Source: an uncultured Actinomycetes bacterium (GTDB lineage Bacteria; Actinomycetota; Thermoleophilia; Gaiellales; JAICJC01). From it: a stretch of DNA of 64,000 nucleotides. Below the pieces are notes generated by a model. That model made no database searches and was not told the origin of the DNA. It saw only the letters and a list, made by a program, of their open reading frames with translations. Each line of letters begins with the position of its first letter. Position 1 is the first letter of the stretch. The stretch lies in assembly GCA_963727235.1 (NCBI GenBank), contig CAVSFZ010000023.1:248-64247 (forward strand), given 5' to 3'. Both the position numbers and the translations under genes were made by a program. Shown here piece after piece: positions 22,493 through 49,226 of this stretch.

Positions 22493-22493
22493 C

Positions 22494-22526: not shown

Positions 22527-22530
22527 GGTC

Positions 22531-26819: not shown

Positions 26820-26827
26820 GAGGGACG

Positions 26828-28258
26828 ATGTCGACTGACAAATCCCCCGCACAGCAGAACGTGCTCGGCCATAGCCGGATCTTCACGCCCGAGGTCATCA
26901 ACGACATCCACGTGAAGTCCGAGCTGGGCCGCTACCGCATGCGCGGATTCTCGATGTTCAAGCCGATCCCACACTGGGACGAGCTGATGTTCATGCCCGG
27001 CACCCTGACCCGGTTCGTGATCGAGGGGTACCGCGAGAAGTGCGAGACCAAGACCGTCCTGGGAGCCCGGTTCGCCAAGAAGCCGATCGAGCTGGACATT
27101 CCGGTGTACATCACCGGAATGAGCTTCGGTGCGCTCTCGCTGGAGGCCAAGATGGCTCTCGCCCGCGGCGCGTCGATGGCCGGCACCGCGACCTGTTCCG
27201 GCGAGGGCGGCATGATCCCGCCCGAGCGCGATCACAGCACGAAATGGTATTACCAGTGCATTCAAAGCCGGTACGGGTTCAACCCGCACCATCTGATGCT
27301 CGCCGATGCCTGTGAGTTCTTCATCGGACAGGGCTGCAAGGTCGGCCTGGGCGGCCACCTGATGGGCCAGAAGGTGACCGAGCAGGTGGCCGAGATGCGG
27401 TCACTGCCGGCGGGAATCGACCAGCGCTCACCGGCGCGGCATCCCGACTGGCTGGGCCCCGACGACCTCTCGCTGAAGATCCAGGAGGTGCGCGAGGCCA
27501 CCGACTACCAGATCCCGATCCAGCTCAAGCTGGGTGCGTCACGGGTGTACGACGATGTGCGGATGGCGGCCAAGTGCGGCCCCGACATCATCTACCTGGA
27601 CGGCGCCGAGGGCGGCACCGGTGCCGGCCCTCACATCGCAACCGAGGAGACCGGGATTCCACTGATGGCGGCCATCCCCGAGGCGCGCCGAGCGCTCGAA
27701 GACGTCGGCTTGGCCGACCAGATCGATCTGGTCGTGGCCGGCGGGATCCGAAACGGCGGCGATGTCGCCAAGGCGCTGGCGCTGGGCGCAAAGGCGATCG
27801 CCCTCGGCCACTCGGCGCTGATGGCGCTGAACTGCAACAAGGAGATCCCCGGGGTCACCGACTACGAGGGCACCGTCGGTGTGCCGGCAGGCAAGTGCTA
27901 CCACTGCCACACCGGCCGCTGCCCAGTGGGCGTTGCCACCCAGGATCCCGAGCTGCGCAAGCGGCTGGTTGTGGAGGACGCCTCCGAGCGGGTCTACAAC
28001 TTCCTGCACACGCTCACGCTCGAGGTGCAGATGCTGGCCCGCGCGTGTGGCAAGACCAACATCCACAGCCTCGAGCCAGAGGACCTGTGCGCCCTCACCA
28101 CCGAGGCCTCGGCGATGGCCCGCGTGCCGCTGGCCGGGACGACCTACATCCCAGGTGTGACCGAGCAGGAGACGCTGTCTGAGATCAAGCGGCTGCTGGA
28201 GAAGAAGCACGAGGAAGAGGCTGTCCGCGAGGCCCATCTGGAAGCGACCGGAGACTGA
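26828..28258 (+). CDS. FMN-binding glutamate-synthase-family protein (GlxD/MgsC-like)
   Basis: GGAGGGA lies before ATG 26828. ITGMSFGALS, QGCKVGLGGHLMG, IYLDGAEGGTGAGP, VAGGIRNGGDVAKALALGA, and CHTGRCPVGVATQD. Confidence 0.85.
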   Translation: MSTDKSPAQQNVLGHSRIFTPEVINDIHVKSELGRYRMRGFSMFKPIPHWDELMFMPGTLTRFVIEGYREKCETKTVLGARFAKKPIELDIPVYITGMSFGALSLEAKMALARGASMAGTATCSGEGGMIPPERDHSTKWYYQCIQSRYGFNPHHLMLADACEFFIGQGCKVGLGGHLMGQKVTEQVAEMRSLPAGIDQRSPARHPDWLGPDDLSLKIQEVREATDYQIPIQLKLGASRVYDDVRMAAKCGPDIIYLDGAEGGTGAGPHIATEETGIPLMAAIPEARRALEDVGLADQIDLVVAGGIRNGGDVAKALALGAKAIALGHSALMALNCNKEIPGVTDYEGTVGVPAGKCYHCHTGRCPVGVATQDPELRKRLVVEDASERVYNFLHTLTLEVQMLARACGKTNIHSLEPEDLCALTTEASAMARVPLAGTTYIPGVTEQETLSEIKRLLEKKHEEEAVREAHLEATGD

Positions 28259-28702: not shown

Positions 28703-29245
28703 GTGACGCTCGCCGTCGTGGCAGTCATCGGGTGCTATGCACTCGGCTGCCTGACGGCGGGCTACTACCTCGTCCGGCTAACGGCCGGCGCGGACGTGCG
28801 CACGGGCGGCACCGGTTCCACCGGGGCCCGCAACGTCGGTCGTGTGGCGGGCGTGCGCGTGGCCGCGCTGACGCTCGCGCTCGACTGTGCCAAGGGAGCG
28901 ATCGCGGTGGCCGTGGCGGGCGCGCTGACCGACTCCACCGCGGTGGCTGCGGCGGCCATGGTGGCGGTGGTCGCCGGCCACGTGTATCCGGCCCAGCTCC
29001 ACTTCCGCGGCGGCCGGGGCCTTGCAACCGCGCTGGGGGCGATGGCGGTGCTCGACTGGCGGGTGGCGCTGGTCGGCGTGGTGGCGGCGCTGCTGGCAAC
29101 TGCCGCGACGCGCACGCCGACGGTGGGCGGATTGGTCGGGGCGGCCTCAGCCCCGGCCGGCGCCGCAGTGCTGGGCGCCGGCCGGGCTGTGATCCTGGGG
29201 ACGCTGGCAACCCTCGCCATCATCCTGGCGGCTCACCGCCGGTGA
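28703..29245 (+). CDS. plsY: glycerol-3-phosphate acyltransferase PlsY-like membrane protein
   Basis: Polytopic hydrophobic protein with GGTGSTGARNVGR (compare the PlsY GSGNxGATN motif), LDCAKGAIAV and FRGGRGLATALG. Its stop TGA 29243-29245 lies inside palindrome copy B. Confidence 0.7.
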   Translation: MTLAVVAVIGCYALGCLTAGYYLVRLTAGADVRTGGTGSTGARNVGRVAGVRVAALTLALDCAKGAIAVAVAGALTDSTAVAAAAMVAVVAGHVYPAQLHFRGGRGLATALGAMAVLDWRVALVGVVAALLATAATRTPTVGGLVGAASAPAGAAVLGAGRAVILGTLATLAIILAAHRR

Positions 29246-29272
29246 ATAACGGTGCCTGGCACCGTTATTCAC
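29242..29272. repeat. palindromic repeat copy B (31 bp, linker C; 33 bp if the flanking G...C pair is counted)
   Basis: GTGAATAACGGTGCCTGGCACCGTTATTCAC is perfect. The flanks CACCGCC (29234-29240) and GGCGGTG (29276-29282) extend the inverted repeat. Confidence 0.95.
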
Positions 29273-29286
29273 CCTGGCGGTGTGGA

Positions 29287-29319
29287 GTGAATAATTGGTG
29301 CCTGGCACCAATTATTCAC
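29287..29319. repeat. palindromic repeat copy C (33 bp, linker TT)
   Basis: GTGAATAATTGGTGCCTGGCACCAATTATTCAC is perfect. It lies 14 bp from copy B and contains the stop codon (29316-29318, minus strand) of the FAD oxidoreductase gene. Confidence 0.95.
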
Positions 29320-30626
29320 GACCAGGGATACGGGCTGTGGGATACCGGGTGGAGGGCGCCGGTGGTGAAGCGCTCGTAGGTGAACGGCTCGAGCACGCGG
29401 GATTCGCCGCCGGTCATGACACGGGCGACCTCGCGGCCCACGCCGATCATCTTGTAACCGTGGTTGGAGTCGGCGATCACGTACACGTTGGGCAGCATGT
29501 AGTCGAACACCGGGAAGCTGTCGACGGTGAAGCAGCCGACCCCGCCCGAGCGGATGTTCTTGTAGGTGGGCCGCTTGCCCTCGAAGCGGGCCATGCAGTG
29601 TGACAGCGAGGCGCACCACATGTCGGCGAAATCCGACTCGACCGATGCGGTGGGATACGGGTCGACTTCGTAGTCATGGCCGACCACCACCGGCGCGGCT
29701 CCACCCTGCACGCCGTGGAGATCCTGCTTGAAGTAGTTGCCCCAGAACTCGTCGGTGACCAGCTTGCCCTCGTCGTCGTACAGAGGCGCGTCCGAATCGA
29801 CATGCAGCACCGGCGGCATCGAGCCGTCCTCCAGAGACAGCAGCTTGGGGTCGACGCCGATCTCACCCTCCTGGAGATACCAGTACGTCCACATCTCCTG
29901 GTCGCGGTGCACCTGCCCGTCGGGCGTATGCACGTCGAGCGTGTTCGGGAGGCCGAGCATCGTCCAGATGCGCTCGATCCAGGGGCCGACCCCGACCACG
30001 ACCTGCTCGACCTCGATGTCGCCCTGGTCGGTGTTGACCTTGGTGACCGCCCCGCTGGAGTCGGTCTCGAATCCGGTGACGCGGACGCCCTCGATCAGGC
30101 GGGCACCGGCCTGCTTGGCCTTGGCAGCGAGACCGTGCAGCGAGGCCATGTTGTTGGCAAAGCCGCCCTTCTGCTCATGCAGGCACACGTGCACCCCTTG
30201 CGCCCGCCAGTCGGGGAACATCGCCTTCATGTGCTCGCGCACCTCGGCTTCGCCGACGATCAACTGCGACGGGTACCCGATCCGGGCCTGCCGCTGGTGC
30301 ACCTCGGTGAGATCGGTGATCTGACGCTCGGCGCCGAGTGCGACGTACCCGACGTCGTGGTAGCTGAAGGCCTGCGGATCCTGCTCCCACACCTCGACGT
30401 TTGCGGCCATCAGCTCGCTCATCGCGGGCTGGTAGTAGTTGTTGCGCACAACCCCACAGGCGATGCCCGAGGCCCCGGCGCCGACACCGGTCTTGTCGAT
30501 CACCAGCACGTCCGGCTCCTCCCCGCGCGCTGTCTGTTCCTTGGCGAGATGCCAGGCCGAGGAGAGGCCGTGGATCCCGGCTCCGATGACGAGGTACTTG
30601 GCGCGCGACGGCAGGCTCATGAACAC
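29316..30626 (-). CDS. FAD-dependent oxidoreductase (DAO / sarcosine-oxidase-beta-like family)
   Basis: YLVIGAGIHGLSSAWHLAK dinucleotide fold, GACGVVRNNY-type block (GIACGVVRNNYYQP), 436 aa. Confidence 0.8.
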   Translation of the reverse strand: MFMSLPSRAKYLVIGAGIHGLSSAWHLAKEQTARGEEPDVLVIDKTGVGAGASGIACGVVRNNYYQPAMSELMAANVEVWEQDPQAFSYHDVGYVALGAERQITDLTEVHQRQARIGYPSQLIVGEAEVREHMKAMFPDWRAQGVHVCLHEQKGGFANNMASLHGLAAKAKQAGARLIEGVRVTGFETDSSGAVTKVNTDQGDIEVEQVVVGVGPWIERIWTMLGLPNTLDVHTPDGQVHRDQEMWTYWYLQEGEIGVDPKLLSLEDGSMPPVLHVDSDAPLYDDEGKLVTDEFWGNYFKQDLHGVQGGAAPVVVGHDYEVDPYPTASVESDFADMWCASLSHCMARFEGKRPTYKNIRSGGVGCFTVDSFPVFDYMLPNVYVIADSNHGYKMIGVGREVARVMTGGESRVLEPFTYERFTTGALHPVSHSPYPWS

Positions 30627-30701: not shown

Positions 30702-31475
30702 TCAAACGCCACCCGGGTGTCCGAGCGCACGCGACATGTCGGAAGCGTGGGCCAGCAATGCGGGGAGCGCGGCCGCCTGAGCCGCCTGGTCGAAGCGGCC
30801 GGCCGGACCCTGCAGTCCCAGCACCGCCGCCAGCTCGCCGGACGCCCCGAACACCGGGGCGGCGATTGCGTTCAGGTCCGGCTCCCGCTCACCCTCGGCG
30901 CGTGCCCAGCCCTGCGACCGCACCCCGGCGAGCTCACGCTCGAGCACCGCCGGGTCGATCACGGTGCGATCGGTGTAGCGTTCGAGCACCCCGGCCGGCT
31001 GCGCGGGCGACCCGAAGGCCAGCCCCACCTTGCCGGTGGCCGTGGCATGCGCAATGCTCGGTCGGCCCACCCTTGCCACACTGGCGACCGACGCCCGGCT
31101 GGGCACGAAGTCGACCGTGACCGCATCCCGCTCGCCCGGAATGGAGAGCGTCACCGTCTCGCCGGTTTCCTCGCCCAGCTCCACCAAATGGCGTCGCGCG
31201 ATCCCGCGCAGATCGAGCCCGGCCAGCACGTGATTGGAGAGCTCCAGCAGATGGGTGCCGAGCCGGTAGCGACCGGTCTCGGGCAGATGCTCCACGTAGC
31301 CGGCGTCGACCAGCGTCGAAAGCGTGCGCGAGACGGTGGAGGCATTGATTCCGGTGATCCGCACCAGATCGGTGTTGCGGACGTCACCGGGCACCTGCAT
31401 GAAGGCGTCCAGGACGCGCAACGCGCGCTCGACTGCCGCAAGGCGGCGTTCTGCAGGTCGACCGGTGGGCGGCAT
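30702..31475 (-). CDS. IclR family transcriptional regulator
   Basis: VERALRVLDAFMQVPGDVRNTDLVRITGINASTVSRTLSTLVDAGYVEH (wHTH) followed by an IclR effector domain. Start ATG 31475. Confidence 0.85.
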   Translation of the reverse strand: MPPTGRPAERRLAAVERALRVLDAFMQVPGDVRNTDLVRITGINASTVSRTLSTLVDAGYVEHLPETGRYRLGTHLLELSNHVLAGLDLRGIARRHLVELGEETGETVTLSIPGERDAVTVDFVPSRASVASVARVGRPSIAHATATGKVGLAFGSPAQPAGVLERYTDRTVIDPAVLERELAGVRSQGWARAEGEREPDLNAIAAPVFGASGELAAVLGLQGPAGRFDQAAQAAALPALLAHASDMSRALGHPGGV

Positions 31476-31480
31476 CAGCC

Positions 31481-31487
31481 TATTATG
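31481..31487. promoter_or_regulatory. overlapping face-to-face -10 boxes in a 20-bp divergent intergenic region
   Basis: Plus strand: TATTAT (31481-31486), 9 nt before ATG 31496. Minus strand: CATAAT (31487-31482), 6 nt before ATG 31475. Confidence 0.35.
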
Positions 31488-31495
31488 GACGGGAG

Positions 31496-32029
31496 ATGGC
31501 AACCCACAGCGATCCAACCCGGCGCGTCGACTTCCGTGATGTCGTCGGCGCGTTCGCCACCGGGGTGACCGTGGTCACCTCCCGCTACGGGGATTCGCGG
31601 GCCGGCATGACGCTCAACTCGTTCACGTCGGTATCGCTCGATCCGCTGCTGGTGTTGGTGTCTCTGGCCCACGGAACCCGCACGCTGGAAAAGATCCGCC
31701 AGAGCGAGCGCTACGCCGTCAACGTGCTGCACCGCCGCCAACGCGACGTGGCACTGGCGTTCGCGAAGCCAGGAGCGGCGTTTCCCGATGGGCACACCGT
31801 GCTCGACCCCACCGGCTTCGTGGTCGTGCGCCACTCTCTGGCGATCCTCCGATGCGAGGTTTCACACGTCTTCACAGCCGGGGATCACGACCTGGTGGTG
31901 GGTGAAGTGTTCGACTTCGAAGGGTCGGGCGGGGAGCCGCTGATCTTCCACCGGGGAGCGTTCGGAGGGCTGGACGAAGACGCGCTGGTGCCCCGGGGTC
32001 GCGTGATCGGCATCGCGGGCGGCTGGTAG
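31496..32029 (+). CDS. flavin reductase domain protein (HpaC-like)
   Basis: FRDVVGAFATGVTVVTS, GMTLNSFTSVSLDPLLVLVSL, and GDHDLVVGEV. Confidence 0.85.
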   Translation: MATHSDPTRRVDFRDVVGAFATGVTVVTSRYGDSRAGMTLNSFTSVSLDPLLVLVSLAHGTRTLEKIRQSERYAVNVLHRRQRDVALAFAKPGAAFPDGHTVLDPTGFVVVRHSLAILRCEVSHVFTAGDHDLVVGEVFDFEGSGGEPLIFHRGAFGGLDEDALVPRGRVIGIAGGW

Positions 32030-34150: not shown

Positions 34151-34183
34151 ATGAATAATTGGTGCCTGGCACCAATTATTCAT
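34151..34183. repeat. palindromic repeat copy D (33 bp, linker TT, terminal bases A...T)
   Basis: ATGAATAATTGGTGCCTGGCACCAATTATTCAT is perfect. It lies between convergent stops at 34146 and 34194. Confidence 0.95.
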
Positions 34184-34193
34184 GCTGCTCAGG

Positions 34194-34676
34194 TCACGGT
34201 CCCTCTCCCGCGACCCAGAGGAGACAGGGGGCGCGCTTGCGGACGCGCCGGGAGATGCGTGCGAACAGGCGTGGTCGGAACCTCGACCGGTCGGGGCCGA
34301 GCACCAGCAGGCCCGCCTGATACTCACCTGCCAGGTCGAGCACGGCATCGACCGGCTTGGCCGAAGGTACACGCAGGTGCTCCACCTCGAGCCCGAGACC
34401 TGCCATCTGCGCCACCAGCTCCCGGATCCGCGCACGATCCTCGTCCAGCTCCAGCTCGGCGTAGCGCATGGTCAGCGCCTGCGGCCACCACGGCCGCTCC
34501 ACCGCGTCGACCACGATCAACCGGGCGTTGGTCTCCAGCGCCGCTTGGGCCGCCACCCGCACCGCCTCGGGATCGAACGGCACCGCCAGCGTGGCCAGGA
34601 TCACCACGCTGCTTCGTGAGTGGCTCCCCCGTTCCTCGACCGGCGGTTCGACGGTGGTCGAATCGCGAACGTTCAC
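34194..34676 (-). CDS. USP-like (adenine-nucleotide alpha-hydrolase-like) protein, paralog 1
   Basis: 161 aa from GTG 34676. VVILATLAVPFDPEAVRVAAQAALE...LLVLGPDRSRFRPRLFARISRRVRKRAPCLLWVAGEGP. The C-terminal xxAPCxxxV resembles universal stress proteins. Collinear with ORF 36819..37304. Confidence 0.6.
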   Translation of the reverse strand: MNVRDSTTVEPPVEERGSHSRSSVVILATLAVPFDPEAVRVAAQAALETNARLIVVDAVERPWWPQALTMRYAELELDEDRARIRELVAQMAGLGLEVEHLRVPSAKPVDAVLDLAGEYQAGLLVLGPDRSRFRPRLFARISRRVRKRAPCLLWVAGEGP

Positions 34677-34775
34677 GCCGCCTATCTTCGCGGATGGGCG
34701 GCCGCACGGCAAGGAGCTCGCCGACAGAACCACAGGGGGCGGGCCGCTTGGCCCGCCCCCTCACGACTCCTCAGT

Positions 34776-36299
34776 TCAATGCTGTTCGGTTGAGACGCCC
34801 GCCGGAGGCACGTCGTCCGGCATTGTCGGCGCCCACAGACGGAATGCCAGCTTCTGCTTGTCCTGCCACACGACCCTGATGATGTAGAGAACCGCGGCGA
34901 TGCAGAGCACGCCGATGCCCTCGAACACAATCGTCTTACTCGTGTTGCCGTAGGCGAGGCCAGAGTTCCAACCACCCCAAACCAACAGCAGCAGGTCGAA
35001 CGCCGCCAAGGCACCGGCAATCGGAAGCCAGATCGAGTGAACCTTGATCGGGCGCGGCCAGTTGGGACGATCCCTGCGCAGCAGCAGGAAGCCCGACATC
35101 GCGAACACGTGGCAGGTCACGTACCCGAGGTTGGAGAAGATCAGGATCTTGATCGCCCCCGACGGGTCGTATGCGTAGGTGAACAGCAGCACGATATTCA
35201 GCAACGCGTCGAGCGTCATCGCGTTTGCCGGCACATGTTTCCCGTTGAGTTTGCCGAACCACTTGATGGTCATACCGTCCTGGGCGATCCCGTACAGTGC
35301 GCGGGAGCCGTCCGCTGTGGCGGTGTTCATGGCCAGCACGATTCCCGCGCACAGCGAGAACACTGCGATGCTCGTGAGGATGCTGCCGAGCAGTATGTGC
35401 AGCGTTTCCGGCATGAACGTGTAGATGTTGGTGATATCGATGTTCTGGTCACCGAACGTGCCGATCGCGCCCATCGGCAGCAGACCGTAGGTGATCACGC
35501 CGAACACGGCCGCAACCCGCAGCGCCTTGGGCGTGTCCTTGGCGGTGTCGTGGTACTCCGGAGCGAAGGTCGCACAACACTCCATCCCGTACGCCGACCA
35601 GCACATGGTGTACAGCCACACGATGATCAGGGTGAAGCTGGTCACCCCCAGCGAGCCCGCGGTGGCGCTGATGTTGTTATGCAGGTTCGCGCTGTCCCAC
35701 TTGCCGTCGAGATAGGGCAGAAACATCATGACCGCCAGCGGAATCATCAGCAGTGCGCCGGTGACGTAGCCGACCCAAACCGCGGGGCGCATCCCCAGCA
35801 CGTTGAAGAGCCAGATAACCGCGATGATCACCGTGGTCAGCGCGATCGGGAAGCTGAAGTAGATCGTCTGACCCAGGAACTGCCAGCTGTGATTCCAGCT
35901 GGTCGAGGTCGCCGAGGAGGTGTACCACTCGTTCTGAACCAAGAACCCGACGACCACGCCGGTCGCCGAAAGCACCACCGACCAGCCGATCCAGTACCCG
36001 AAGGCTGAAATCGGGCCGACGAACGAGAAGTACTTCTTCCACGCTTCGTGGGCGTAGATCGCAATGCCGCCGGACAGTTTCGGAAACATCGCCGCGGTCT
36101 CGGAATAGATGTAGTTGTGACCGGCACCGAGAACCACTGACACAGTCCACAGAATGACGGCTCCCCAACCGCCCAGGCTGAGCACCGACGCGCCCAGGGC
36201 GGTGATCAGGAAGCTCGGGTTCGCAAGCGCGACCACAAACCCGTCGAACCAGCTGATCGATTTGAGGAGTTCTCGTTCCTCGACTGCAACGGTCGCCAT
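34776..36299 (-). CDS. APC-superfamily amino acid/polyamine permease
   Basis: 507 aa and about 12 hydrophobic segments. MATVAVEERELLKSISWFDGFVVALANPSFLI...GAGHNYIYSETAAMFPKLSGGIAIYAHEAW. Confidence 0.85.
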   Translation of the reverse strand: MATVAVEERELLKSISWFDGFVVALANPSFLITALGASVLSLGGWGAVILWTVSVVLGAGHNYIYSETAAMFPKLSGGIAIYAHEAWKKYFSFVGPISAFGYWIGWSVVLSATGVVVGFLVQNEWYTSSATSTSWNHSWQFLGQTIYFSFPIALTTVIIAVIWLFNVLGMRPAVWVGYVTGALLMIPLAVMMFLPYLDGKWDSANLHNNISATAGSLGVTSFTLIIVWLYTMCWSAYGMECCATFAPEYHDTAKDTPKALRVAAVFGVITYGLLPMGAIGTFGDQNIDITNIYTFMPETLHILLGSILTSIAVFSLCAGIVLAMNTATADGSRALYGIAQDGMTIKWFGKLNGKHVPANAMTLDALLNIVLLFTYAYDPSGAIKILIFSNLGYVTCHVFAMSGFLLLRRDRPNWPRPIKVHSIWLPIAGALAAFDLLLLVWGGWNSGLAYGNTSKTIVFEGIGVLCIAAVLYIIRVVWQDKQKLAFRLWAPTMPDDVPPAGVSTEQH

Positions 36300-36330
36300 G
36301 GAACCTCCTGGAAACTAGGACAAGGAAAAA

Positions 36331-36352
36331 TGCTTGATCTGAGAATCAAACA
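36331..36352. promoter_or_regulatory. inverted repeat TGCTTGAT-N6-ATCAAACA in an AT-rich divergent intergenic region (candidate operator)
   Basis: 8-bp arms with one mismatch, between permease start 36299 and the Zn-ribbon gene. Confidence 0.25.
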
Positions 36353-36438
36353 GGATCGTGAGGGAGCGGTCAAGACTTCGCGCCAACCGATTTGCACGCG
36401 CACTTGCGGCGCCGCCCTGCCTTGAGGAAGATACGCAG

Positions 36439-36822
36439 GTGAAACTCCCTCTCCCACACGCGTTCGCGCCGCCGCGGCTGACGCTTCGCTGCGAGTGCGG
36501 CACCGAAGGACTGGTGGGCTATGGCGACCAGTGGACGTGCCCAAACTGCGGCCGAAACTATGACACGTCACACATCCCCAGCGAGGATTACGACCGCATC
36601 CTCGCCCTCAACCGCCGGTACACGATCGGTGCGGTGGCAGTGGTTGCCGTGCTCGCCGTGATCGTGTTGGTAATCGCGATCACAGGGCAGATCGTCACGA
36701 TCTTCGCCGGATTGGCCCTGACCCTGCTCGGCTGGTTTCTCTTCATCAAACCCGTCATCCATCGACGGCACAAGAATGCCGTCGGCGATCTCGTGCGCAA
36801 CTGGGATCTGGAGGCCGAGTGA
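36439..36822 (+). CDS. zinc-ribbon protein with two C-terminal transmembrane segments
   Basis: LRCECGTEGLVGYGDQWTCPNCGRNYD (CxC...CxxC), then IGAVAVVAVLAVIVLVIAITG and IFAGLALTLLGWFLFI. GAGGAAG lies 8 nt before GTG 36439. Its stop overlaps the next start (GTGA). Confidence 0.55.
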   Translation: MKLPLPHAFAPPRLTLRCECGTEGLVGYGDQWTCPNCGRNYDTSHIPSEDYDRILALNRRYTIGAVAVVAVLAVIVLVIAITGQIVTIFAGLALTLLGWFLFIKPVIHRRHKNAVGDLVRNWDLEAE

Positions 36823-37304
36823 CCCGGACGGTCGACTCCGGCCCACGGGTACCCGAAGCCCCGCGACTCGACGGCGACTCTCGCGGCCAGCCGGTGGTGC
36901 TCGCCACCCTGGCAGTGCCGTTCGAGCCCGAGTCAGCCCGAGTCGCAATCCAGGCGGCGCTGGAAAGCCATGCCAAGCTGGTGGTCGTGGACGCGGTCGA
37001 GATGCCGCTGTGGCACCAGTGCCTGACCACCCGCCGAGCAGAGCTCGAGCTGGACGAGGACCGGCAGGAGATCCGGCGGCTGGTCGGAGATGCGCACGGC
37101 CTGGGATTGCAGGTCGAGCACCTGCGAGTGCGCAGCCCGCGGCCGGTGGACGCCCTGCTCGAGGTGGTGGAGGAGTGCAATGCCGGCCTGCTGGTGCTCG
37201 GCCCCGACCCCGCCAGGCTCACCAAACGGCTGTTCGCACGCGCGGTGCGCAAGATCCGCAAGCGGGCGCCGTGCCTGACGTGGATCGCCGGCGAAGGCCC
37301 CTGA
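36819..37304 (+). CDS. USP-like (adenine-nucleotide alpha-hydrolase-like) protein, paralog 2
   Basis: 161 aa. VVLATLAVPFEPESARVAIQAALE...LLVLGPDPARLTKRLFARAVRKIRKRAPCLTWIAGEGP. Same length as 34194..34676 and collinear with it. Confidence 0.6.
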   Translation: MTRTVDSGPRVPEAPRLDGDSRGQPVVLATLAVPFEPESARVAIQAALESHAKLVVVDAVEMPLWHQCLTTRRAELELDEDRQEIRRLVGDAHGLGLQVEHLRVRSPRPVDALLEVVEECNAGLLVLGPDPARLTKRLFARAVRKIRKRAPCLTWIAGEGP

Positions 37305-37313
37305 GAGCCGGCG

Positions 37314-37346
37314 GTGAATAAAAGGTGCCTGGCACCTTTTATTCAG
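37314..37346. repeat. palindromic repeat copy E (33 bp, linker AA; last base G instead of C)
   Basis: GTGAATAAAAGGTGCCTGGCACCTTTTATTCAG. It contains the stop codon (37343-37345, minus strand) of the CheW-CheC gene. Confidence 0.95.
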
Positions 37347-38421: not shown

Positions 38422-39795
38422 TTACCCGGCGTTTGCCTCCGCCAGGAGCTTCTCGGCCAGCTCGCGCTTCTCGTCGGAGGTCATCTTCTTGAGCTCATTG
38501 GAGAGGGCGCGCTGGTTGATCACGACGTTCCAGTAGTCGAGCGATTCCATTCCCAGAAGGGCGGTCTTGCCGACGAACTGGCGCAGCACCTCATTGGTCG
38601 GCCCCATCACCCAGCCGGCCTTGCCGTCGCGCAGGTAGCGCTCGAGCTGGAGCGGCTCCTTCTTGTACGCGGTGCCGCCGCAGCAGTGCAGCATCTTGTC
38701 GACCACATGGGCGACGTTCTTGGCTGCCGTGAACTTGATCTGCCAGCACCACGGGAGGTAGTTGCCGCGGGCCAGCTCGTTGGTGATCTTGGCCTGCGAA
38801 CCATCGGTCACCAGGTCGAGGGCATGGGCCACCCCGAACGTCATCAGGCGGGAGGCGTTGGTATCCATGATGGCCTCGCCGACCGCGTCCTGGATGGTGG
38901 GATAGTCACACACGCGCAGGCCCACGTCCTTGTGGGTCTTGCGGGTGGTGTGCCGAATGGCGATGTCGATCGCCCCCAGGGCGATCCCGTTCCAGGTGCC
39001 GGACGACCCGATCAGGAAGTTGGGGTCGACCGACTCGTCGTTGGAGAAGGCACCGTCGCCGATCTCACCGACCAGCTGTTCGCCGGGGACGAACTTCCAG
39101 TCGAGCAGCAGCGTGCCGGACTGGTTACCACGAAGACCCATGGCATCCCACTCCTCCGGCTTGGCCTCGATCTCGCTCTTGTCGACCACAAACACCGACA
39201 GGTTCGAGTAGTCGCCGTTGTACTCCGGTGACGTGGTCTGAAGCACGTAGAAGTCGGCGAAGCCGGCAGACGTCGTCCACGACGCCTTCTTCAGCACCTC
39301 GTAGCCGCCGTCGACGCTGCGCGCGCCGGAGGCGATCGGGTACCAGAAGTGCGAGCCGGTCTCGGGGTCGGAGTAGGACAGGGTGCCGATCAGGCCGTCG
39401 CGAGTCTTCGACAGATAGTTCTCGACCAGGTAGTCGGTGGCGCGCAGCTTGAGCGTCTCCACCGCACCGATGTGCATGACGTAACACATCGCGGCCGACG
39501 CATCGCCGTAGCGGGCGATCGTCTCGGTCACGTTTGCGTACATCACGTGGTTCTGACCGAGGCCGCCCCACTCCTTGGGCAGCATCAGGCCGAGAAACCC
39601 GTCGGGCCCCAGCGCCTCGAGGCTCTTGCGCGGGAAGGTCAGCGTGCGGTCGTTCTCCGCCGCCAGCGGCCGAATGGTCTCTTCGCAGATCTCCTTCAAC
39701 CGCTCCAGCAGCTTGAGCTGCTCGTCATCCAGATACCAATCGGGCTGGAACATGGGGTCCAGCCCGTTCATCGCGGACTCGGCGACCGTTGCCAT
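38422..39795 (-). CDS. acyl-CoA-dehydrogenase-family flavoprotein with a C-terminal extension
   Basis: 457 aa. AAGGGAG lies 6 nt before ATG 39795. ACAD-like blocks: LGLMLPKEWGGLG, SDPETGSHFW, WDAMGLRGNQSG, and ERYLRDGKAG. The tail is ELKKMTSDEKRELAEKLLAEANAG. Confidence 0.7.
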   Translation of the reverse strand: MATVAESAMNGLDPMFQPDWYLDDEQLKLLERLKEICEETIRPLAAENDRTLTFPRKSLEALGPDGFLGLMLPKEWGGLGQNHVMYANVTETIARYGDASAAMCYVMHIGAVETLKLRATDYLVENYLSKTRDGLIGTLSYSDPETGSHFWYPIASGARSVDGGYEVLKKASWTTSAGFADFYVLQTTSPEYNGDYSNLSVFVVDKSEIEAKPEEWDAMGLRGNQSGTLLLDWKFVPGEQLVGEIGDGAFSNDESVDPNFLIGSSGTWNGIALGAIDIAIRHTTRKTHKDVGLRVCDYPTIQDAVGEAIMDTNASRLMTFGVAHALDLVTDGSQAKITNELARGNYLPWCWQIKFTAAKNVAHVVDKMLHCCGGTAYKKEPLQLERYLRDGKAGWVMGPTNEVLRQFVGKTALLGMESLDYWNVVINQRALSNELKKMTSDEKRELAEKLLAEANAG

Positions 39796-39963
39796 CCGGG
39801 TCTCCCTTCGTCGTCAATAGGCAGCGATATCCTACTGTTCTCGCAGCCCCCCAGTCTATGGTGGTTACTCCACCTGATGGCGAGATGTCCATGCCGAGGT
39901 GGACATGAAAGCCTGCAACAAGCGCCAAGAAGGTCGGCGCGGCGGGCAACCGGCTCCCGGCGG

Positions 39964-39969
39964 TACCAT
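39964..39969 (+). promoter_or_regulatory. candidate -10 box (TACCAT) for a leaderless PucR-type regulator transcript
   Basis: TACCAT is followed by 6 nt (CTGGAT) and then GTG 39976. Confidence 0.3.
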
Positions 39970-39975
39970 CTGGAT

Positions 39976-41793
39976 GTGTCCGTTTCGCACACATCCGCAG
40001 ATGCCGCGGAGGCGGCCGTGCCGATCGCGCCACAGCGCGGCGTCGACAGCCGCTATCTCCACCAGATCATCAACACGGTGTCGTCGACGCTCGACCTCGA
40101 CCGGGTGCTGCGGGCAATCGTCGAGGTGATCACCGACGCGATCGACTGCCACGCCTGCTTCATCTACTTCGTCGACCCCGACGACGGCTCGCTCACGCTG
40201 CGATCGGTGTCCGAGCCCTACGGCAGCCTGGTCGGCAGGCTCCGCTTCGAGCACGGCGAGGGTCTGGCCGGATGGGTGGCGGTCAACAACCAGCCGGTGT
40301 TCCTCGACGACAACGCGCTGGCCGACCCGCGCGTGAAGATCGTGCCGGAAGCCGAGGAAGAGGACTACCAGTCGCTGGTCGCGGTGCCGCTGAACGACAA
40401 GTCGGGCACCGTCATCGGCGTGATCGCGCTGCACGCCGAGGCGCCCCGGGAGTTCACCCAGGCCGACTCAGACTTCCTGATGCATTCGGCCACCCTGGTG
40501 GCCGGTGCGATCGAGAACGCGCGGCTGTACCAGGACACCCGCCGCCGGCTGGCGTTGGTGGAGGGCCTGGCCGACCTGGCCCGGGCGGTTGCCGACGCGG
40601 CCCGCCTGGACGACCTGCTGCCGGCCGTGGCCAAGCGCGCACACCGGCTGCTGACCGTCGACGCCTGCCAGCTGTATGTGGTCGATCCCGCCGGGGGAAG
40701 CGAGCTCTTGTGCAGCGCCTGGCCGCCCGAGGCCGGTCCGCCGACGCCGATCACCGCTCAGGAGATGGGGGTCGAGATCGCCCGCCGCACCCCCGGCAGC
40801 GGACGCCTGGCTGCTCGCCTGTGGGATCGCGACTCGCAGGGATCGGCGGCGGTGCTGTCGCTGGTGGCCGCCGATGAGCTGGTGGGATTCCTCGCCCTGC
40901 GGATTCCCGAGGGCCGCCGGATGGACGCCGAGGAGCGCGAGATCGCGGCTTCGATCGCCGGGCAGACGGCCGTTGCCATCAAGAAGGTCGAGCTGATCGA
41001 CCGGCTCACGGAGCGAAACGCGATCAAGGACCTGCTCGAGGATCTGGCGCACGCCACCGCCACCCCGGAGGAGCTCGGCGCCCGCGCCCGGGCGCTGGGC
41101 ACGGATCTCGACCGGCCGCATCTGGTGATGCAGGCCGTGCCCCGTCCGGGGACGGCCTCACGGACGTGGGACGAAGTCGCAACGGCGTTGGAGAGCACCG
41201 CCACCCGCTCGTTCCCCGGCTCGCTGTTCGACCGCCGCGACGCCGCTCTGCGCGGACTGATCCGACTCGACGCCGGCGGCGAGAAGGCCGCCGTGGCGAA
41301 GCTGCGCGAGCTGCACGCCACCCTCAACGCCCGCCACCCGCTCGCAATCGGGCTGTCGCAGCGCTGCGAAGGGGCGGCCAGCTTCCGCACCGGATTCGAA
41401 GAGGCCGAGCAGGCCGTGGCCGCAGCCGCGATCGTCAGTCCCGAGCCAAGCGTGGTCGGCTTCGACGACCTGGGCGCCTACAAGTACCTGCTGCGGGTGG
41501 GCCAGGACGGCCGGGTGCGCGACCCCCGCGGCGACGCTTTGAAGGTGCTGGTCGAGTACGACCGGCGGCACCGGTCACAGCTTTTGTCGACCCTGGAGGA
41601 GTACCTCAAGCGCCGCGGAAACATCGCAGCGGCGGCCCAGACGCTGTACGTGCACCCCAACACCCTGCGGCAGCGCCTGCGGCGAATTCAGGATCTCACC
41701 GGGCTGGACGTCGCCAACGAAGATTGGCTCATGATCGAGATCGAGCTGAAGCTGCTGCGGCTCGAGCACACGCTGGGCCGACCAAGCTCGTGA
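39976..41793 (+). CDS. GAF-domain protein with a C-terminal PucR-type helix-turn-helix (PucR/CdaR family regulator)
   Basis: LDLDRVLRAIVEVITDAIDCHACFIYFVD...GEGLAGWVAVNNQPVFLDD...VAVPL...GVIALH (GAF), followed by a second GAF-like region. The C-terminus is LEEYLKRRGNIAAAAQTLYVHPNTLRQRLRRIQDLTG. The upstream part of ORF 39349.. is antisense to the ACAD-like gene and was not called. Confidence 0.75.
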   Translation: MSVSHTSADAAEAAVPIAPQRGVDSRYLHQIINTVSSTLDLDRVLRAIVEVITDAIDCHACFIYFVDPDDGSLTLRSVSEPYGSLVGRLRFEHGEGLAGWVAVNNQPVFLDDNALADPRVKIVPEAEEEDYQSLVAVPLNDKSGTVIGVIALHAEAPREFTQADSDFLMHSATLVAGAIENARLYQDTRRRLALVEGLADLARAVADAARLDDLLPAVAKRAHRLLTVDACQLYVVDPAGGSELLCSAWPPEAGPPTPITAQEMGVEIARRTPGSGRLAARLWDRDSQGSAAVLSLVAADELVGFLALRIPEGRRMDAEEREIAASIAGQTAVAIKKVELIDRLTERNAIKDLLEDLAHATATPEELGARARALGTDLDRPHLVMQAVPRPGTASRTWDEVATALESTATRSFPGSLFDRRDAALRGLIRLDAGGEKAAVAKLRELHATLNARHPLAIGLSQRCEGAASFRTGFEEAEQAVAAAAIVSPEPSVVGFDDLGAYKYLLRVGQDGRVRDPRGDALKVLVEYDRRHRSQLLSTLEEYLKRRGNIAAAAQTLYVHPNTLRQRLRRIQDLTGLDVANEDWLMIEIELKLLRLEHTLGRPSS

Positions 41794-42017: not shown

Positions 42018-42281
42018 ATGAGTTTTCTCTTAGCTTGCCCCAACTGCGGCCGCCGGCCGGTCGACGAGTTCTCCTACGGAGGCGAAATCACCTTCCGGCC
42101 GGACTCCTCTGAAGACGAGCATGCGCTCTTCAGCTACCTGTACTTCCGCCGCAACACCGCCGGCGAGCAGACCGAGTGGTGGTTTCACTCCTCCGGGTGC
42201 CGCGAGTGGTTCCAGGCGCGCCGCATCACCTCTGACAACACGGTGATCGAAACCGCCAAGCCGGGAGCGCTCAGTGCCTAA
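42018..42281 (+). CDS. soxD: heterotetrameric sarcosine oxidase-type delta subunit
   Basis: MSFLLACPNCGRRPVDEFSYGGE...YLYFRRNTAGEQTEWWFHSSGCREWF. Confidence 0.85.
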   Translation: MSFLLACPNCGRRPVDEFSYGGEITFRPDSSEDEHALFSYLYFRRNTAGEQTEWWFHSSGCREWFQARRITSDNTVIETAKPGALSA

Positions 42282-45000
42282 CCCCCGTTTGCTGGAACAC
42301 AACGGCGAGCTGATCGACCGCTCGCGCGAGATCGCGTTTTCGTGGCAGGGTGAGCCGTACACCGGCTATGCGGGCGACACGGTCGCCTCGGCGCTGTACG
42401 CCGCAGGTGTGCGGGTGTTCTCCCGCTCGTTCAAGTACCACCGCCCGCGCGGCCTGCTGTGCTGCAGCGGCCAATGCCCCAACTGCCTGGTGCAGGTGGA
42501 TGGGGTGCCCACGGTGCGGGCCTGCATGACGCCGATCCGGGGCGGGATGCAGGTGCAGCACATCAACGCCTGGCCTTCGCTCGAGCGAGACGCGCTGCAC
42601 GCATTGACCAAGGTCACCCCCGGTTTCGGCATGCAGGTCGGCTTCTACTACAAGACCTTCATCCGGCCACGGTGGGCGTGGAAGTACTACGAGAAGTTTC
42701 TCCGCACCGCCGCCGGCCTGGGCAAGCTCGACCCCGAGCATCGCCGCACCCGCCGGTTCGAGAAGGTGCACCGGCACGTGGACGTCCTGGTGATCGGCGG
42801 AGGCCCCGCCGGCCTCGAAGCCGCCATCGCCGCTGCCGGCGAAGGCCGCGATGTGGCGCTGGTGGACGAAGGCCTGGCTCTGGGCGGGCACCTCGCCTAC
42901 TCCGGCCACAAGGCCGCCACGGCGGCTCAGGAACTGGCCGATCGCGCCCGGGATCTGGGCGTCCACATCCTCCAGCCGGCCTACGCCGGAGGCATGTACG
43001 AAGGCAACCTCGTGCCCGTCTACCAGGGCGACACGATGCACCGCTTCCGCGCCGAGGAAGTGGTGCTGGCCAGCGGCACCATCGAGCAGCCGCTGGTGTT
43101 CGCCGGCAACGATCGGCCGGGCGTGATGCTGGGAAGCGCCGCCCGCCGCCTCGTGAACCAGTTCCGGATCCCGCCCGGCGAACAGGCGGTGGTGGTGTGC
43201 GCCGACGATGCCGGCATCGACGCCGCGCTGGATCTGGCTCACGCCGGGATGGTCGTCACGGCGGTGGCCGATACCCGCGCGGGCGCGCGCGATGAGCGCC
43301 TCGCCCAGGCCGGGATCGAGCATCTCACCGGGTTTGCGCCGGTGCGCACCAAAGGTCGCAAGTCGGTCACCGGCGTCGAGGTGGCCCGCGGCTCGGAGAC
43401 GCGCAGCCTGAGCGGCGACGTGGTGCTGATGTCCGGAGGCCAGGTCGGCCAGCTGGGCTTCCTCACCCAGGCCGGCGGCACCATCCGGTACGACCGCGAG
43501 CAGCGGGTGTACGTCCCCGACCACGTCCCCAACGGCGTGCGCGTGGCGGTTGAGCCGGTGGGCTCGAGCGAAGCCATCCCGGCCAAGTGCGCAGACGCAT
43601 CCGGCAAGCAGTTCGTGTGTTACTGCGAGGACGTGACCACCAAGGACGTGCACCAGTCGATCGAGGAAGGTTTCGCGTCGCTGGAGCTCAGCAAGCGCTA
43701 CACCACCGTCACCATGGGCCCCTGTCAGGGACGCATGTGCCACCGCAACTCGGGCCTGCTGATCGCCTCCGAGCTGGGGATCGATCCCGACGGCCAGCAG
43801 GCCGGTGTGACCACCGCCCGGCCGCCGCATCACCCGACCAGCTTCTCGCTGCTGGCCGGGCGCGGCTATGAGCCGGTCAAGCGCACCACCATGCACCACT
43901 GGCACGAGGAGCACGGCGGCCGGATGCTGTGGGCCGGCGACTGGAAGCGGCCCTACGACTACGGCTCACCGGACGACGAGACCGCGGCGGTGCACGACTC
44001 GCTGGGCCTGATCGACGTGTCCACCCTGGGCAAGCTGATCGTCCGCGGGCCCGATGCTGCCGAGTTCCTGGAACGGCTCTACCCCAACCGGTTCGGCGAC
44101 ATGAAGCTGGCTCGGGTGCGATACGCGGTGGTCTGCGGCGACGACGGCTCGATCATCGACGACGGCACCGTTGCCCGCCTGTCGGACACCGAGTACTACG
44201 TCACCACCACCTCGTCGGGAGCCGGCGGGATGGAGCAGTGGTTCACATGGTGGAACGCCGTGTGGAACATGGACGTGCAGGTGATCAACGTCACCAGCGC
44301 GATCGCTGCGGTCAACGTGGCCGGGCCCAACGCCCGCACCGCGCTGGGCAAGCTGACCCAGTTCGACCTCTCCAACGAGGCCTTCCCGTACCTGGGAGCC
44401 GGCCATGCCACCATCGCCGGAGTCCCCGGACTGGTGCTGCGGATCGGCTTCGTCGGTGAGCTCGGATACGAGATTCACTATCCCAGCGCTGCCGGCGAGT
44501 ACCTGTGGGAACAGCTGATGGAGGCTGGTGCCGAGTTCTCGGTGAAGCCGTTCGGGCTCGAGCCCCAGCGCGTGCTGCGGCTGGAGAAGATGCACGTGAT
44601 CGTCGGCCAGGACACCAACGCCGAGTCCAGCCCGCTGGAGGCGGCGATGCCGTGGATCGTGAAGCTGGACAAGGAGTCACCCTGGATCGGCCGCTACGCG
44701 CTGGAGTACTTCAAGCGCCGCGGAGACCGGTTCGCGCTGATCGGATTCACCGTCGACAACGGCAAGACCCCGGTCGAGGGAACCCAGGTGATCGGGCCGA
44801 ACGGCCGGCCGATCGGCCGCATCACCAGCTCCCGCTTCTCCAAACGGCTGGGCAAGGCGATCGGAATCGCCTGGGTGCCGATCGACTTCGCCGAGGAGGG
44901 CAACGCGATCACCATCTCGGATCCCTCCGGGGCCAAGATCCCCGCGACCGTGACGCACAAAGCGTTCTACGACCCCGACGGAGAGAAGCTGCGCTCATGA
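42274..45000 (+). CDS. soxA: heterotetrameric sarcosine oxidase-type alpha subunit
   Basis: 908 aa. FSWQGEPYTGYAGDTVASALYAAGVRVFSRSFKYHRPRGLLCCSGQCPNCLVQVDG, VDVLVIGGGPAGLEAA, and a C-terminal GcvT-like folate-binding region. Confidence 0.9.
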   Translation: MPNPRLLEHNGELIDRSREIAFSWQGEPYTGYAGDTVASALYAAGVRVFSRSFKYHRPRGLLCCSGQCPNCLVQVDGVPTVRACMTPIRGGMQVQHINAWPSLERDALHALTKVTPGFGMQVGFYYKTFIRPRWAWKYYEKFLRTAAGLGKLDPEHRRTRRFEKVHRHVDVLVIGGGPAGLEAAIAAAGEGRDVALVDEGLALGGHLAYSGHKAATAAQELADRARDLGVHILQPAYAGGMYEGNLVPVYQGDTMHRFRAEEVVLASGTIEQPLVFAGNDRPGVMLGSAARRLVNQFRIPPGEQAVVVCADDAGIDAALDLAHAGMVVTAVADTRAGARDERLAQAGIEHLTGFAPVRTKGRKSVTGVEVARGSETRSLSGDVVLMSGGQVGQLGFLTQAGGTIRYDREQRVYVPDHVPNGVRVAVEPVGSSEAIPAKCADASGKQFVCYCEDVTTKDVHQSIEEGFASLELSKRYTTVTMGPCQGRMCHRNSGLLIASELGIDPDGQQAGVTTARPPHHPTSFSLLAGRGYEPVKRTTMHHWHEEHGGRMLWAGDWKRPYDYGSPDDETAAVHDSLGLIDVSTLGKLIVRGPDAAEFLERLYPNRFGDMKLARVRYAVVCGDDGSIIDDGTVARLSDTEYYVTTTSSGAGGMEQWFTWWNAVWNMDVQVINVTSAIAAVNVAGPNARTALGKLTQFDLSNEAFPYLGAGHATIAGVPGLVLRIGFVGELGYEIHYPSAAGEYLWEQLMEAGAEFSVKPFGLEPQRVLRLEKMHVIVGQDTNAESSPLEAAMPWIVKLDKESPWIGRYALEYFKRRGDRFALIGFTVDNGKTPVEGTQVIGPNGRPIGRITSSRFSKRLGKAIGIAWVPIDFAEEGNAITISDPSGAKIPATVTHKAFYDPDGEKLRS

Positions 45001-45674
45001 CGGTTACCGACCCCTACGCATTCCTGTCGCCGGCCGCCGTGGCACCGTCGGGATCGCATACACCCAGCCTGCGCACGCCCATGGAGCGGGCGCACATCAA
45101 CGCCGGAGCGGCGCTCACCGACCACCAGGGCTGGCGGATCGCCACGTATCCGGCCGAGTCGGCCGAGCTGTGGATCGCCGATCGCTCGCATCTCGGCAAG
45201 CTCGACCTGCGCGGCACTGCCGAGCAGCTGGACACGCTCACCGGCGGGCTCGAGCCCGGCCACGCCCGTGACGACGGAGGCGTGTGGACGCTGCGGCTGA
45301 CCGCGACCCACGGATACGTGATCTGCGGATTCGACCGTGTGGCCGAGCTGCGGGAGCGAATCGGAGCGGCCGGAATCGACATCACCTGCGCCATGGCGGC
45401 GGTCGAGATCGGCGGGGAGCAGTGGCGCGAGGTGTTCATGCGCTCGTCCGGCTCGGACGTGCGCGCGAGCAGGTTCCCACACAACCGCTGCGTCGCCGGA
45501 TCGGTGATGCGCTGCCCGGCGCTGATCCTGAATGCCGGTGACCGGGTGTTGATGCTGATCGGGTGGGAGTTCGGCGAGTACTTCTGGGAGGCCATCCTGG
45601 ACGCCGGAGTCAACCTCGGCATCACCCCCATCAACCCACTTGGCAACCCGACCCAGCAGGAGGAGCAGGCATGA
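44997..45674 (+). CDS. soxG: heterotetrameric sarcosine oxidase-type gamma subunit
   Basis: ATGA overlap with soxA. The position and size (225 aa) fit, and DRSHLGKLDLRG is a gamma-subunit-like block. Confidence 0.7.
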   Translation: MTVTDPYAFLSPAAVAPSGSHTPSLRTPMERAHINAGAALTDHQGWRIATYPAESAELWIADRSHLGKLDLRGTAEQLDTLTGGLEPGHARDDGGVWTLRLTATHGYVICGFDRVAELRERIGAAGIDITCAMAAVEIGGEQWREVFMRSSGSDVRASRFPHNRCVAGSVMRCPALILNAGDRVLMLIGWEFGEYFWEAILDAGVNLGITPINPLGNPTQQEEQA

Positions 45675-49200: not shown

Positions 49201-49226
49201 ACCCCCCTCCAACGCGGTGCCGCCCG

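Follow-up and report, generated by a model that had tools for sequence, protein, structure and literature searches.

Universal stress proteins (USPs) have been described in association with solute uptake. In Halomonas elongata, the USP TeaD is encoded with, and regulates, the ectoine TRAP transporter TeaABC (Schweikhard et al., 2010, as presented in PMC3673472), and in some archaea amino-acid permeases of the AA_permease_2 type are followed by USP domains within a single fusion protein (PMC3673472). Here we describe a locus in a 64 kb stretch of DNA (hereafter the window; 67 % G+C) from an uncultured Gaiellales bacterium, contig CAVSFZ010000023.1, in which two stand-alone USP genes bracket an APC-superfamily permease and a small zinc-ribbon membrane protein that we refer to as ZNR. 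The region is probably a lineage-specific, rearranged copy of an amine-uptake cassette conserved in Gaiellales and Thermoleophilia, which consists of the permease, ZNR and, usually, one USP coupled to ZNR. The durable result is this conserved three-part cassette with its undescribed ZNR family, a variant of USP-associated transport systems. USPs are abundant and mostly without a mechanism, and a USP subfamily that is co-produced with ZNR beside one type of transporter offers a concrete and testable set of partners.

Like TeaD, the USPs of the cassette stand alone within a solute-uptake gene cluster, and the TeaD structure (3HGM) ranks among the top structural matches of the model of USP2, the second of the two proteins (E = 7.9e-6). 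TeaD, however, binds ATP via a near-canonical G-2x-G-9x-G-S motif that neither USP1 nor USP2 possesses, belongs to a TRAP rather than an APC transporter, and has no zinc-ribbon membrane partner. The archaeal fusions share with our locus an APC-type permease tied to USP domains, and so support the idea of a USP acting on its permease at the cytoplasmic face, although the USP of the cassette is a separate protein coupled to a small membrane protein, and no fusion was found in its subfamily. Among permeases, the closest described system is TmoP, the trimethylamine N-oxide (TMAO) permease of Methylocella silvestris (Zhu et al., 2014, as presented in PMC4543880). TmoP belongs to methylated-amine catabolism, and of the named APC families its NCBIfam model (NF053774) gives the permease of the window the highest score (182.7 bits), but as this score is far under the equivalog cut-off of 690 bits the permease is not a TmoP orthologue. 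We know of no ZNR or USP partner for TmoP. For ZNR itself, the nearest parallels are KdpF, AcrZ and MgtS, short membrane proteins that are encoded beside large transporters and act on them; ZNR is likewise short, membrane-bound and encoded beside a large transporter, on which it would act, whereas these three proteins have a single helix, lack a zinc ribbon and are unrelated to it in sequence. A literature search found no account of a zinc-ribbon partner of APC permeases, or of USP-permease operons in Actinobacteria. The features of the locus are as follows.

34151–34183, no strand: palindrome D, with perfect 16-nt arms and one central base, between a convergent EAL/GGDEF gene and USP1
34194–34676, minus strand: USP1, 160 aa, USP fold with degenerate ATP motif; Pfam Usp 44.8 bits
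34684–34712, minus strand: putative USP1 promoter, TTGCCG-N17-GAAGAT, then 7 nt to GTG 34676
34735–34760, minus strand: G+C-rich hairpin GGGGGCGGGCC-GCTT-GGCCCGCCCCC, directly 3' of the permease stop codon
34776–36299, minus strand: APC-superfamily permease, 507 aa; Pfam AA_permease_2 107.7 bits
36331–36352: inverted repeat TGCTTGAT-N6-ATCAAACA, arms agreeing at 7/8 positions
36345–36373, minus strand: putative permease promoter, TTGACC-N17-TTTGAT, kept across loci
36404–36432, plus strand: putative ZNR-USP2 promoter, TTGCGG-N17-GAAGAT, then 6 nt to GTG 36439
36439–36822, plus strand: ZNR, zinc-ribbon protein with two transmembrane helices, 127 aa, in no curated family
36819–37304, plus strand: USP2, 161 aa; Pfam Usp 32.2 bits
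37315–37345, no strand: palindrome E, with perfect 15-nt arms, of the same family as D

A first-pass annotation, made from the sequence alone, had proposed this order of two palindromes and four genes, and all six were found at the positions it gave, as was the GTGA at 36819–36822 in which the ZNR stop codon TGA overlaps the USP2 start codon GTG. Its anatomy is correct; its interpretation of the region as a duplicated module bounded by palindromes is incorrect. Both USPs had been given as 161 aa, which holds for USP2 only: USP1 cannot have this length because the codon at that position is GGC, and its length is 160 aa if translation starts at GTG 34676 or 179 aa if it starts at GTG 34733, the former being favoured because of the conserved promoter in front of it. 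The 139 nt divergent region between permease and ZNR, described as AT-rich, has 55 % G+C as a whole and 44 % over 36300–36360, against 67 % for the window, and the inverted repeat reported in it exists with imperfect arms. A ZNR start at 36358 was considered and set aside, as GTG 36439 is more likely. To the left, the block is adjoined by the convergent GGDEF/EAL gene, and to the right by a convergent CheW/CheC gene, the stop codon of which falls within the right arm of palindrome E, and then by a gene of the acyl-CoA-dehydrogenase fold (ACAD).

A permease-based scan, in which each species was represented by a single genome, yielded 62 loci, which come without exception from Gaiellales, Thermoleophilia or unclassified Actinomycetota (L-numbers below denote related loci); the closest relatives of the window are soil Gaiellales/Thermoleophilia metagenome-assembled genomes. 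Gene arrangements were read by tblastn with the window proteins.

46 loci: EAL forward, USP and ZNR reverse, permease forward, (CheCW) and ACAD reverse; a single USP behind ZNR
2 loci (L044, L060): two-USP layout as in the window
4 loci (L001, L006, L015, L049): ZNR divergent from permease, USP1 after the permease; no full USP behind ZNR
2 loci: USP divergent from permease, ZNR after the permease
7 loci: ZNR after the permease; no USP
1 locus: ZNR divergent from permease; no USP

Across these six arrangements, ZNR adjoins the permease in every one of the 62 loci. A USP gene lies inside the cassette in 54 of them, the same genetic linkage as in TeaD/TeaABC-type systems, and in 46 of the 62 a single USP is translationally coupled to ZNR. 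The ZNR stop and USP start overlap as RTGA at 43 of 58 junctions, which together with the constant ZNR-permease adjacency supports the earlier proposal that the zinc-ribbon and USP-like genes serve the transporter. Co-occurrence of all four genes, in contrast, holds only in part: the ZNR-permease pair is constant and some USP is usual, but the two-USP layout is confined to the window, L044 and L060. The cassette occupies the same neighbourhood (DAO-IclR-flavin reductase-EAL ... ACAD-PucR) in relatives without such palindromes. Distant ZNRs, with 27–40 % identity, adjoin a permease of the same family in L064, L065, L066, L067, L070 and L073; of six distant homologues with informative context, five have the two genes side by side. 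In 10 loci a second USP-ZNR-permease cassette, 30–45 % identical to the main one, is present in tandem, and its ZNR/USP junction mostly reads TAGCGATG rather than RTGA; this second copy is located directly upstream of the main one (~1400–3900) in L002, L003, L005, L007, L011, L013, L016, L017, L053 and L054.

The ZNR protein combines a CxC...CxxC zinc ribbon with two transmembrane helices behind it and a basic tail, and none of the four cysteines (C18, C20, C34 and C37) varies among 65 homologues. Its AlphaFold2 model (predicted local distance difference test, pLDDT, 86.6) comprises a four-stranded ribbon, whose short strands in residues 14–42 are predicted at pLDDT 90–96, and long helices at 48–82 and 85–119; in this model, the two cysteine knuckles sit on a small beta ribbon, as expected of a zinc ribbon. 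Since basic residues precede helix 1 and follow helix 2, the positive-inside rule would place both ribbon and tail in the cytoplasm. None of the 65 members tested belongs to a family in Pfam or NCBIfam, and searches of the PDB by sequence profile and by fold returned only generic zinc ribbons, below threshold and at E ≥ 0.01. An exhaustive profile search among 1.84 billion cluster representatives found 163 representatives of the family. As judged from these comparisons, ZNR is an undescribed family of zinc-ribbon membrane proteins. Three apparent ZNR-USP fusions, P0248, P0251 and an ORF of L060 (3998–4861, reverse strand), were rejected, as the frame changes mid-sequence and L060 has many broken high-scoring segment pairs elsewhere; these ORFs are probably assembly or gene-calling frameshifts rather than true fusions. 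The ZNR of L001 (4435–4483, reverse strand) carries a 15-residue C-terminal extension, the frame of which runs into the convergent CheC/CheW gene and overlaps its 3' end by ~38 nt.

The first-pass annotation had regarded its USP call as motif-level only, which understates the case, as both proteins score above the gathering score of 24 bits for membership of Pfam PF00582 (Usp). Aligned over 141 aa, USP1 and USP2 show 67 % identity (E = 9e-65). An AlphaFold2 model of USP2 (pLDDT 81.8) has USPs as its top Foldseek matches, with the solved structures 5AHW, 4WNY, 6HCD, 3HGM and 7JI4 reached with E-values between 4e-6 and 1e-5 and template-modelling (TM) scores of 0.5–0.7; the matches include the cAMP-binding MSMEG_3811, TeaD and the USP domain of KdpD. 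The ATP-binding subclass of USPs (UspFG type) is defined by the motif G-2x-G-9x-G-(S/T) (PMC3673472). In both of our proteins this is replaced by G128-PD-P/R-9x-R-A/I, so that the second glycine and the G-S/T pair are absent. The degenerate segment is largely kept throughout a 49-member family alignment, in which G128, D130 and R133 are invariant, and by this motif neither USP1, USP2 nor this family belongs to the ATP-binding subclass. An invariant C-terminal W-x-x-G-E-G-P is a further mark of the family, for which we found 265 homologues, stand-alone, ~160 aa in length and mostly from Gaiellales. Ratios of non-synonymous to synonymous substitution (dN/dS) of 0.04–0.13 for USP1, USP2 and ZNR, calculated against L060 and L044, indicate that all three genes are under purifying selection.

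The permease is a member of the APC superfamily, matching AA_permease_2 over residues 17–445 and AA_permease with 66.6 bits; it has no solved relative in the PDB by sequence. The neighbourhood of the cassette suggests a candidate substrate. The N-methylglutamate pathway of methylamine oxidation is encoded by gmaS, mgsABC and mgdABCD (PMC5023235), and genes with this content are present in the window, matched at domain level only, together with other metabolic and regulatory genes.

23486–24928: glutamine synthetase III (GS-III)-like synthetase, gmaS-like; 330 bits, under cut-off
25114–28258: separate GATase, GXGXG and Glu_synthase genes, mgsABC-like; domain-level matches
29316–30626: DAO oxidoreductase
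30702–31517: IclR regulator
31496–32029: flavin reductase
38422–39795, minus strand: acyl-CoA-dehydrogenase-fold gene (ACAD)
39349–41793, plus strand: PucR/GAF regulator
42018–46882: SoxD, SoxA-like and SoxB-like genes, mgd-like; subfamily matches below cut-offs
46906–49171: formate-tetrahydrofolate ligase (FTHFS) and cyclodeaminase-type gene

Further contexts come from distant ZNRs. In L070, where ZNR is 27 % and the permease 47 % identical to those of the window, flavin reductase, permease, ZNR, gmaS (72 %) and mgsABC (71–87 %) form a co-directional string with gaps of ≤ 57 nt, and soxA-soxD-soxB and iclR lie on the opposite strand. In L073/L074, an amine oxidase, an aldehyde dehydrogenase and a saccharopine-dehydrogenase-like gene are divergent from a permease-ZNR-USP-acetyltransferase series; in L071/L072, where USP and ZNR diverge, the neighbours are a trimethylamine-dehydrogenase-like flavoenzyme, DAO and an aminotransferase; and in L067, the permease and ZNR codons overlap and a GS-like gene comes next. 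From these contexts, taken together with that of the window, the cassette would therefore belong to amine catabolism. If a single substrate had to be named for the genome of the window, it would be methylamine, to which we would give somewhat less than an even chance. No methylamine uptake route was identified in the N-methylglutamate-pathway literature examined, and the permease-ZNR pair inside a gmaS-mgsABC operon is a candidate for this step in abundant uncultured soil Gaiellales.

An intergenic comparison of 52 loci revealed conserved elements in the divergent region, namely the permease promoter TTGACC-N17-TTTGAT, a strong Shine-Dalgarno sequence and the ZNR promoter TTGCSN-N17-GAAGAT, the layout of which recurs before ZNR almost wherever this gene and the permease are divergent. 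As the ZNR promoter ends 6–9 nt before the start codon, the ZNR mRNA is putatively leaderless, and so, probably, is that of USP1, whose promoter ends 7 nt before GTG 34676. Where 0.03 occurrences of the pattern TTGCS-N18-GAAGAT would be expected in the 64 kb, there are two, one ahead of USP1 and one ahead of ZNR, and its USP1 copy is also conserved in L044, L060, L049 and L001; because it has a ZNR-type promoter of its own, USP1 is probably still co-expressed with ZNR-USP2. The inverted repeat at 36331–36352 was rejected as a conserved operator, since one of its arms is the -10 element of the permease promoter and the other is retained only in L060 and, in part, in L044. The hairpin that follows the permease (-34.4 kcal/mol, z -4.5) has equivalents in many related loci and is a probable permease terminator; it moved along with the permease, and now separates this gene from the USP1 promoter. 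An Rfam scan of 28–40 kb gave two chance-level matches only, and no riboswitch in the permease leader. In one clade (L026–L030, L035, L041, L042, L052, L055, L057 and L062), a 14-nt perfect palindrome, GCGGAAGCTTCCGC, overlaps the ZNR -35 element ~45–60 nt before the ZNR start, and in L022, L023 and L033 (imperfectly in L031) the -35/-10 regions of the permease promoter form an inverted repeat, ATCTTGA ... TCAAGAT; both are possible clade-specific operator sites.

How the mirror-like layout arose can be followed through the relatives. The flanks of the window are collinear with those of sister genomes, L009 for example, with DAO, IclR, flavin reductase and EAL to one side of the core and (CheCW,) ACAD and PucR to the other, and within the clade of the window the ZNR-permease core is inverted relative to them. 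ACAD and permease trees group the window with L001 and L006, and each tree adds some of L044, L049 and L015, depending on usable sequence; L009/L043 form the sister group of this clade in the ACAD tree. A USP tree was built with 200 bootstraps. In it, USP1 of the clade is monophyletic (199/200), and its sister group comprises the ZNR-coupled USPs from L009, L038 and L043 (165/200), matching the species proxy. USP2 of the window, L044 and L060, the only loci with a full-length copy, is likewise monophyletic (200/200), and the L008 and L010 USPs join it in 185/200. The first-pass annotation had spoken of a duplicated pair; USP1 and USP2 come from different USP lineages, and USP is the only gene present twice. 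They were never joined in the tree (0/200), are 67 % identical in DNA and have a longest common run of 25 nt, and are therefore not a recent in-place duplication. From the trees and the layout, USP1 looks like the original, vertically inherited partner, uncoupled from ZNR by the inversion, and USP2 like a further copy of different descent. As to whether the ZNR of the window came with USP2, neither grouping in the ZNR tree reaches half of the bootstraps (window with L001 and L006 in 78/200, window with L008/L010 in 16/200).

L049, which is 94–99 % identical to the window in neighbouring proteins, retains only the last ~60 nt of USP2. At L049:4374–4600 (reverse strand), the last 17 USP2 codons (KIRKRALCLTWIAGEGP*) are fused in frame to the 3' end of an L001-type ZNR at a short CGCGG microhomology, with a palindrome directly after. 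The join would be either a deletion product or a recombinant, and appears to make ZNR a mosaic among close relatives. In L001, ZNR abuts the CheCW stop codon, and neither USP2 nor a palindrome is found there; a supposed USP remnant behind ZNR in this locus was dismissed, because this sequence is where the convergent CheC/CheW gene has its 3' end. Taken as a whole, the trees and gene orders indicate that the mirror symmetry is the product of local rearrangement and not of a mobile unit.

Palindromes D and E are two copies of a dispersed hairpin family, the core of which, GGTGCCTGGCACC, occurs 10 times in the window.

22493–22527: palindrome copy 1
29241–29273: palindrome copy 2
29287–29319: palindrome copy 3
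34151–34183: palindrome copy 4 (D)
37315–37345: palindrome copy 5 (E)
49167–49201: palindrome copy 6
49226–49258: palindrome copy 7
~51063–51095: palindrome copy 8
61166–61196: palindrome copy 9
61237–61269: palindrome copy 10

With up to two mismatches allowed, the core has 22 matches over both strands against 4.6 expected, a number reached in 0 of 100 shuffles. The family has the form TGAATAA-N1-4-GGTGCCWGGCACC-N1-4-TTATTCA, giving perfect palindromes of 29–35 nt with arms of 14–17 nt, and the inner spacers vary from copy to copy yet stay complementary between both arms. All 10 copies are intergenic (six between convergent, three between co-directional and one between divergent genes), nine of the 10 are at gene 3' ends, and three sites carry pairs 46–72 nt apart; palindrome E matches the copy at 49169–49199 over all 31 nt. 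As RNA, D folds at -23.9/-23.1 kcal/mol on its two strands (z ~ -5.9) and E at -29.7/-28.6 kcal/mol. Both lack a T run, and neither they nor the permease hairpin were flagged by a consensus scan for canonical intrinsic terminators, in which a G+C-rich stem precedes a T run; all three fold stably. A role as tail-less terminators or RNA ends is possible because of the 3' position of nine of the 10 copies.

At the borders of the block, copy number is variable. On the E side there is one copy in the window, L044, L049, L060 and L006 and none in L001 and L015; on the D side there is one in the window and L044, two in L049, none in L060, L001 and L006, and a variant core in L015. Compared with the orthologous copies of L044 and L049, the spacer has changed on both arms at once, which, with copy numbers of 0, 1 or 2, suggests replacement or mobility of the palindromes rather than point mutation. 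Repetitive extragenic palindromes, the REP/BIME-type repeats, offer the closest comparison: the D/E family is similarly dispersed, intergenic, hairpin-forming, often paired, mostly at gene 3' ends and variable in copy number between relatives, and differs in its unlike sequence, perfect stems and A/T-rich outer arms. By its distribution, the family behaves as a REP-like element that may also end transcripts, and not as terminal repeats of the block. For annotation, it follows that palindromes flanking a gene block in such genomes should not be taken for element boundaries.

These observations bear directly on the suggestion, made in the first-pass annotation, that the 3.2-kb block was possibly acquired or rearranged as one unit with D and E as its bounds. 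The two palindromes do flank the block exactly, L044 too has one at both borders, and G+C falls to 0.62 over 35–37 kb against 0.67. Nevertheless, a 10-copy intergenic family found mostly at gene 3' ends does not delimit a unit when its border copies number 0, 1 or 2 among close, near-identical relatives; 46 loci have the cassette at the same syntenic place and in none of these was a family palindrome found at its border; no integrase, transposase or other mobility gene is among the four; and the lower G+C is limited to the membrane-protein genes and the promoter region. Nor was the unit seen to come and go as a whole, the cassette being present in all 62 syntenic loci of the permease-based scan with only USP2 varying. 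An origin as a discrete unit is largely refuted by these data, and we consider it very improbable. Less credible still is an invertible switch in which recombination at the inverted USPs or at D/E flips the ZNR-permease core. The core does lie opposite to its orientation in the 46 other loci and is bracketed by inverted repeats, but the USP genes offer just 67 % identity and no common run above 25 nt, the orientation is fixed per clade with no polymorphism among close relatives, and a flip would leave the wiring unchanged, as both promoters lie within the core.

With regard to function, ZNR-USP could be an independent stress or regulatory operon that stands beside the permease by inherited synteny alone. 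USPs are generic stress proteins, ZNR-USP has its own promoter divergent from that of the permease, and synteny is to be expected where most loci come from one bacterial order. The ZNR-permease adjacency, however, outlasts inversion, tandem duplication and strand switches (including the overlapping permease stop and ZNR start of L067), and is kept at 27 % ZNR and 43–47 % permease identity while the flanking genes change; mere synteny is thus unlikely in our estimation. We give rather less credence to the view that ZNR is anchored in the membrane to signal or to control transcription, much as an anti-sigma factor or a one-component sensor would, and so governs permease expression. Its divergence from the permease in most loci would suit such a role, and zinc-binding anti-sigma factors resemble it in having a cytoplasmic zinc-binding domain followed by membrane helices, but no sigma-factor or DNA-binding gene is linked to ZNR, 0 of 65 members match the Pfam anti-sigma zinc-finger families, and its downstream co-transcription with the permease, with overlapping codons in several lineages, suits a stoichiometric subunit better.

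We return to the conserved amine-uptake cassette. In its proposed operation, ZNR would bind the permease within the membrane as a dedicated accessory subunit and would present or tether the soluble USP at the cytoplasmic face, where the USP, if present, would be made in fixed ratio with ZNR and tune transport; what it senses inside the cell would probably be a signal, ligand or partner other than ATP bound in the canonical way. TeaD with TeaABC and the permease-USP fusions serve as precedents. The substrate would be a small amine, with methylamine the leading candidate. In the window, USP1 and USP2 may act redundantly or as a heterodimer, and D and E could serve as bidirectional transcript ends at convergent junctions in the manner of REP-like hairpins. 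More tentatively, and with appreciable doubt, we suggest that ZNR founds an undescribed family of zinc-ribbon subunits, obligatory to a distinct APC-permease subfamily for methylamine or other small amines in soil Actinomycetota and recruiting, by way of the cytoplasmic ribbon, a USP without the ATP motif; the outcome would be a regulated transporter of three parts, for which there is no characterized precedent.

Several observations weigh against this interpretation. The permease of L071 lies 4.6 kb away from ZNR, and a USP is missing in the L045-type, L050, L066, L067 and L070 lineages, so that the ZNR-permease pair can do without one. Among the 163 ZNR representatives and 265 USP matches, no protein was found in which ZNR is fused to a permease or a USP. 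The promoters and leaderless starts rest on sequence conservation, and a generic sigma-70/terminator consensus scan detected none of the conserved promoters or hairpins. The substrate is argued from gene neighbourhood only: the permease falls short of the cut-off of its best NCBIfam match, the TMAO permease model, as it does of that for ethanolamine permease (TIGR00908, 46.6 bits against 381.75), and in the window itself the N-methylglutamate-pathway genes are 5–10 kb from the cassette, with unrelated EAL/GGDEF and CheC/CheW genes in between.

A few additional features of the neighbourhood were recorded. Nearly all relatives have the ACAD-fold gene and a flavin reductase gene alongside the cassette, and the two products might form a two-component flavin monooxygenase. 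The true start of the PucR/GAF regulator is probably far downstream of that listed, because the longest ORF overlaps the divergent ACAD-fold gene by ~450 nt. From 49237 onward, the window continues with the purine-biosynthesis genes purD, purE, purB and purC.

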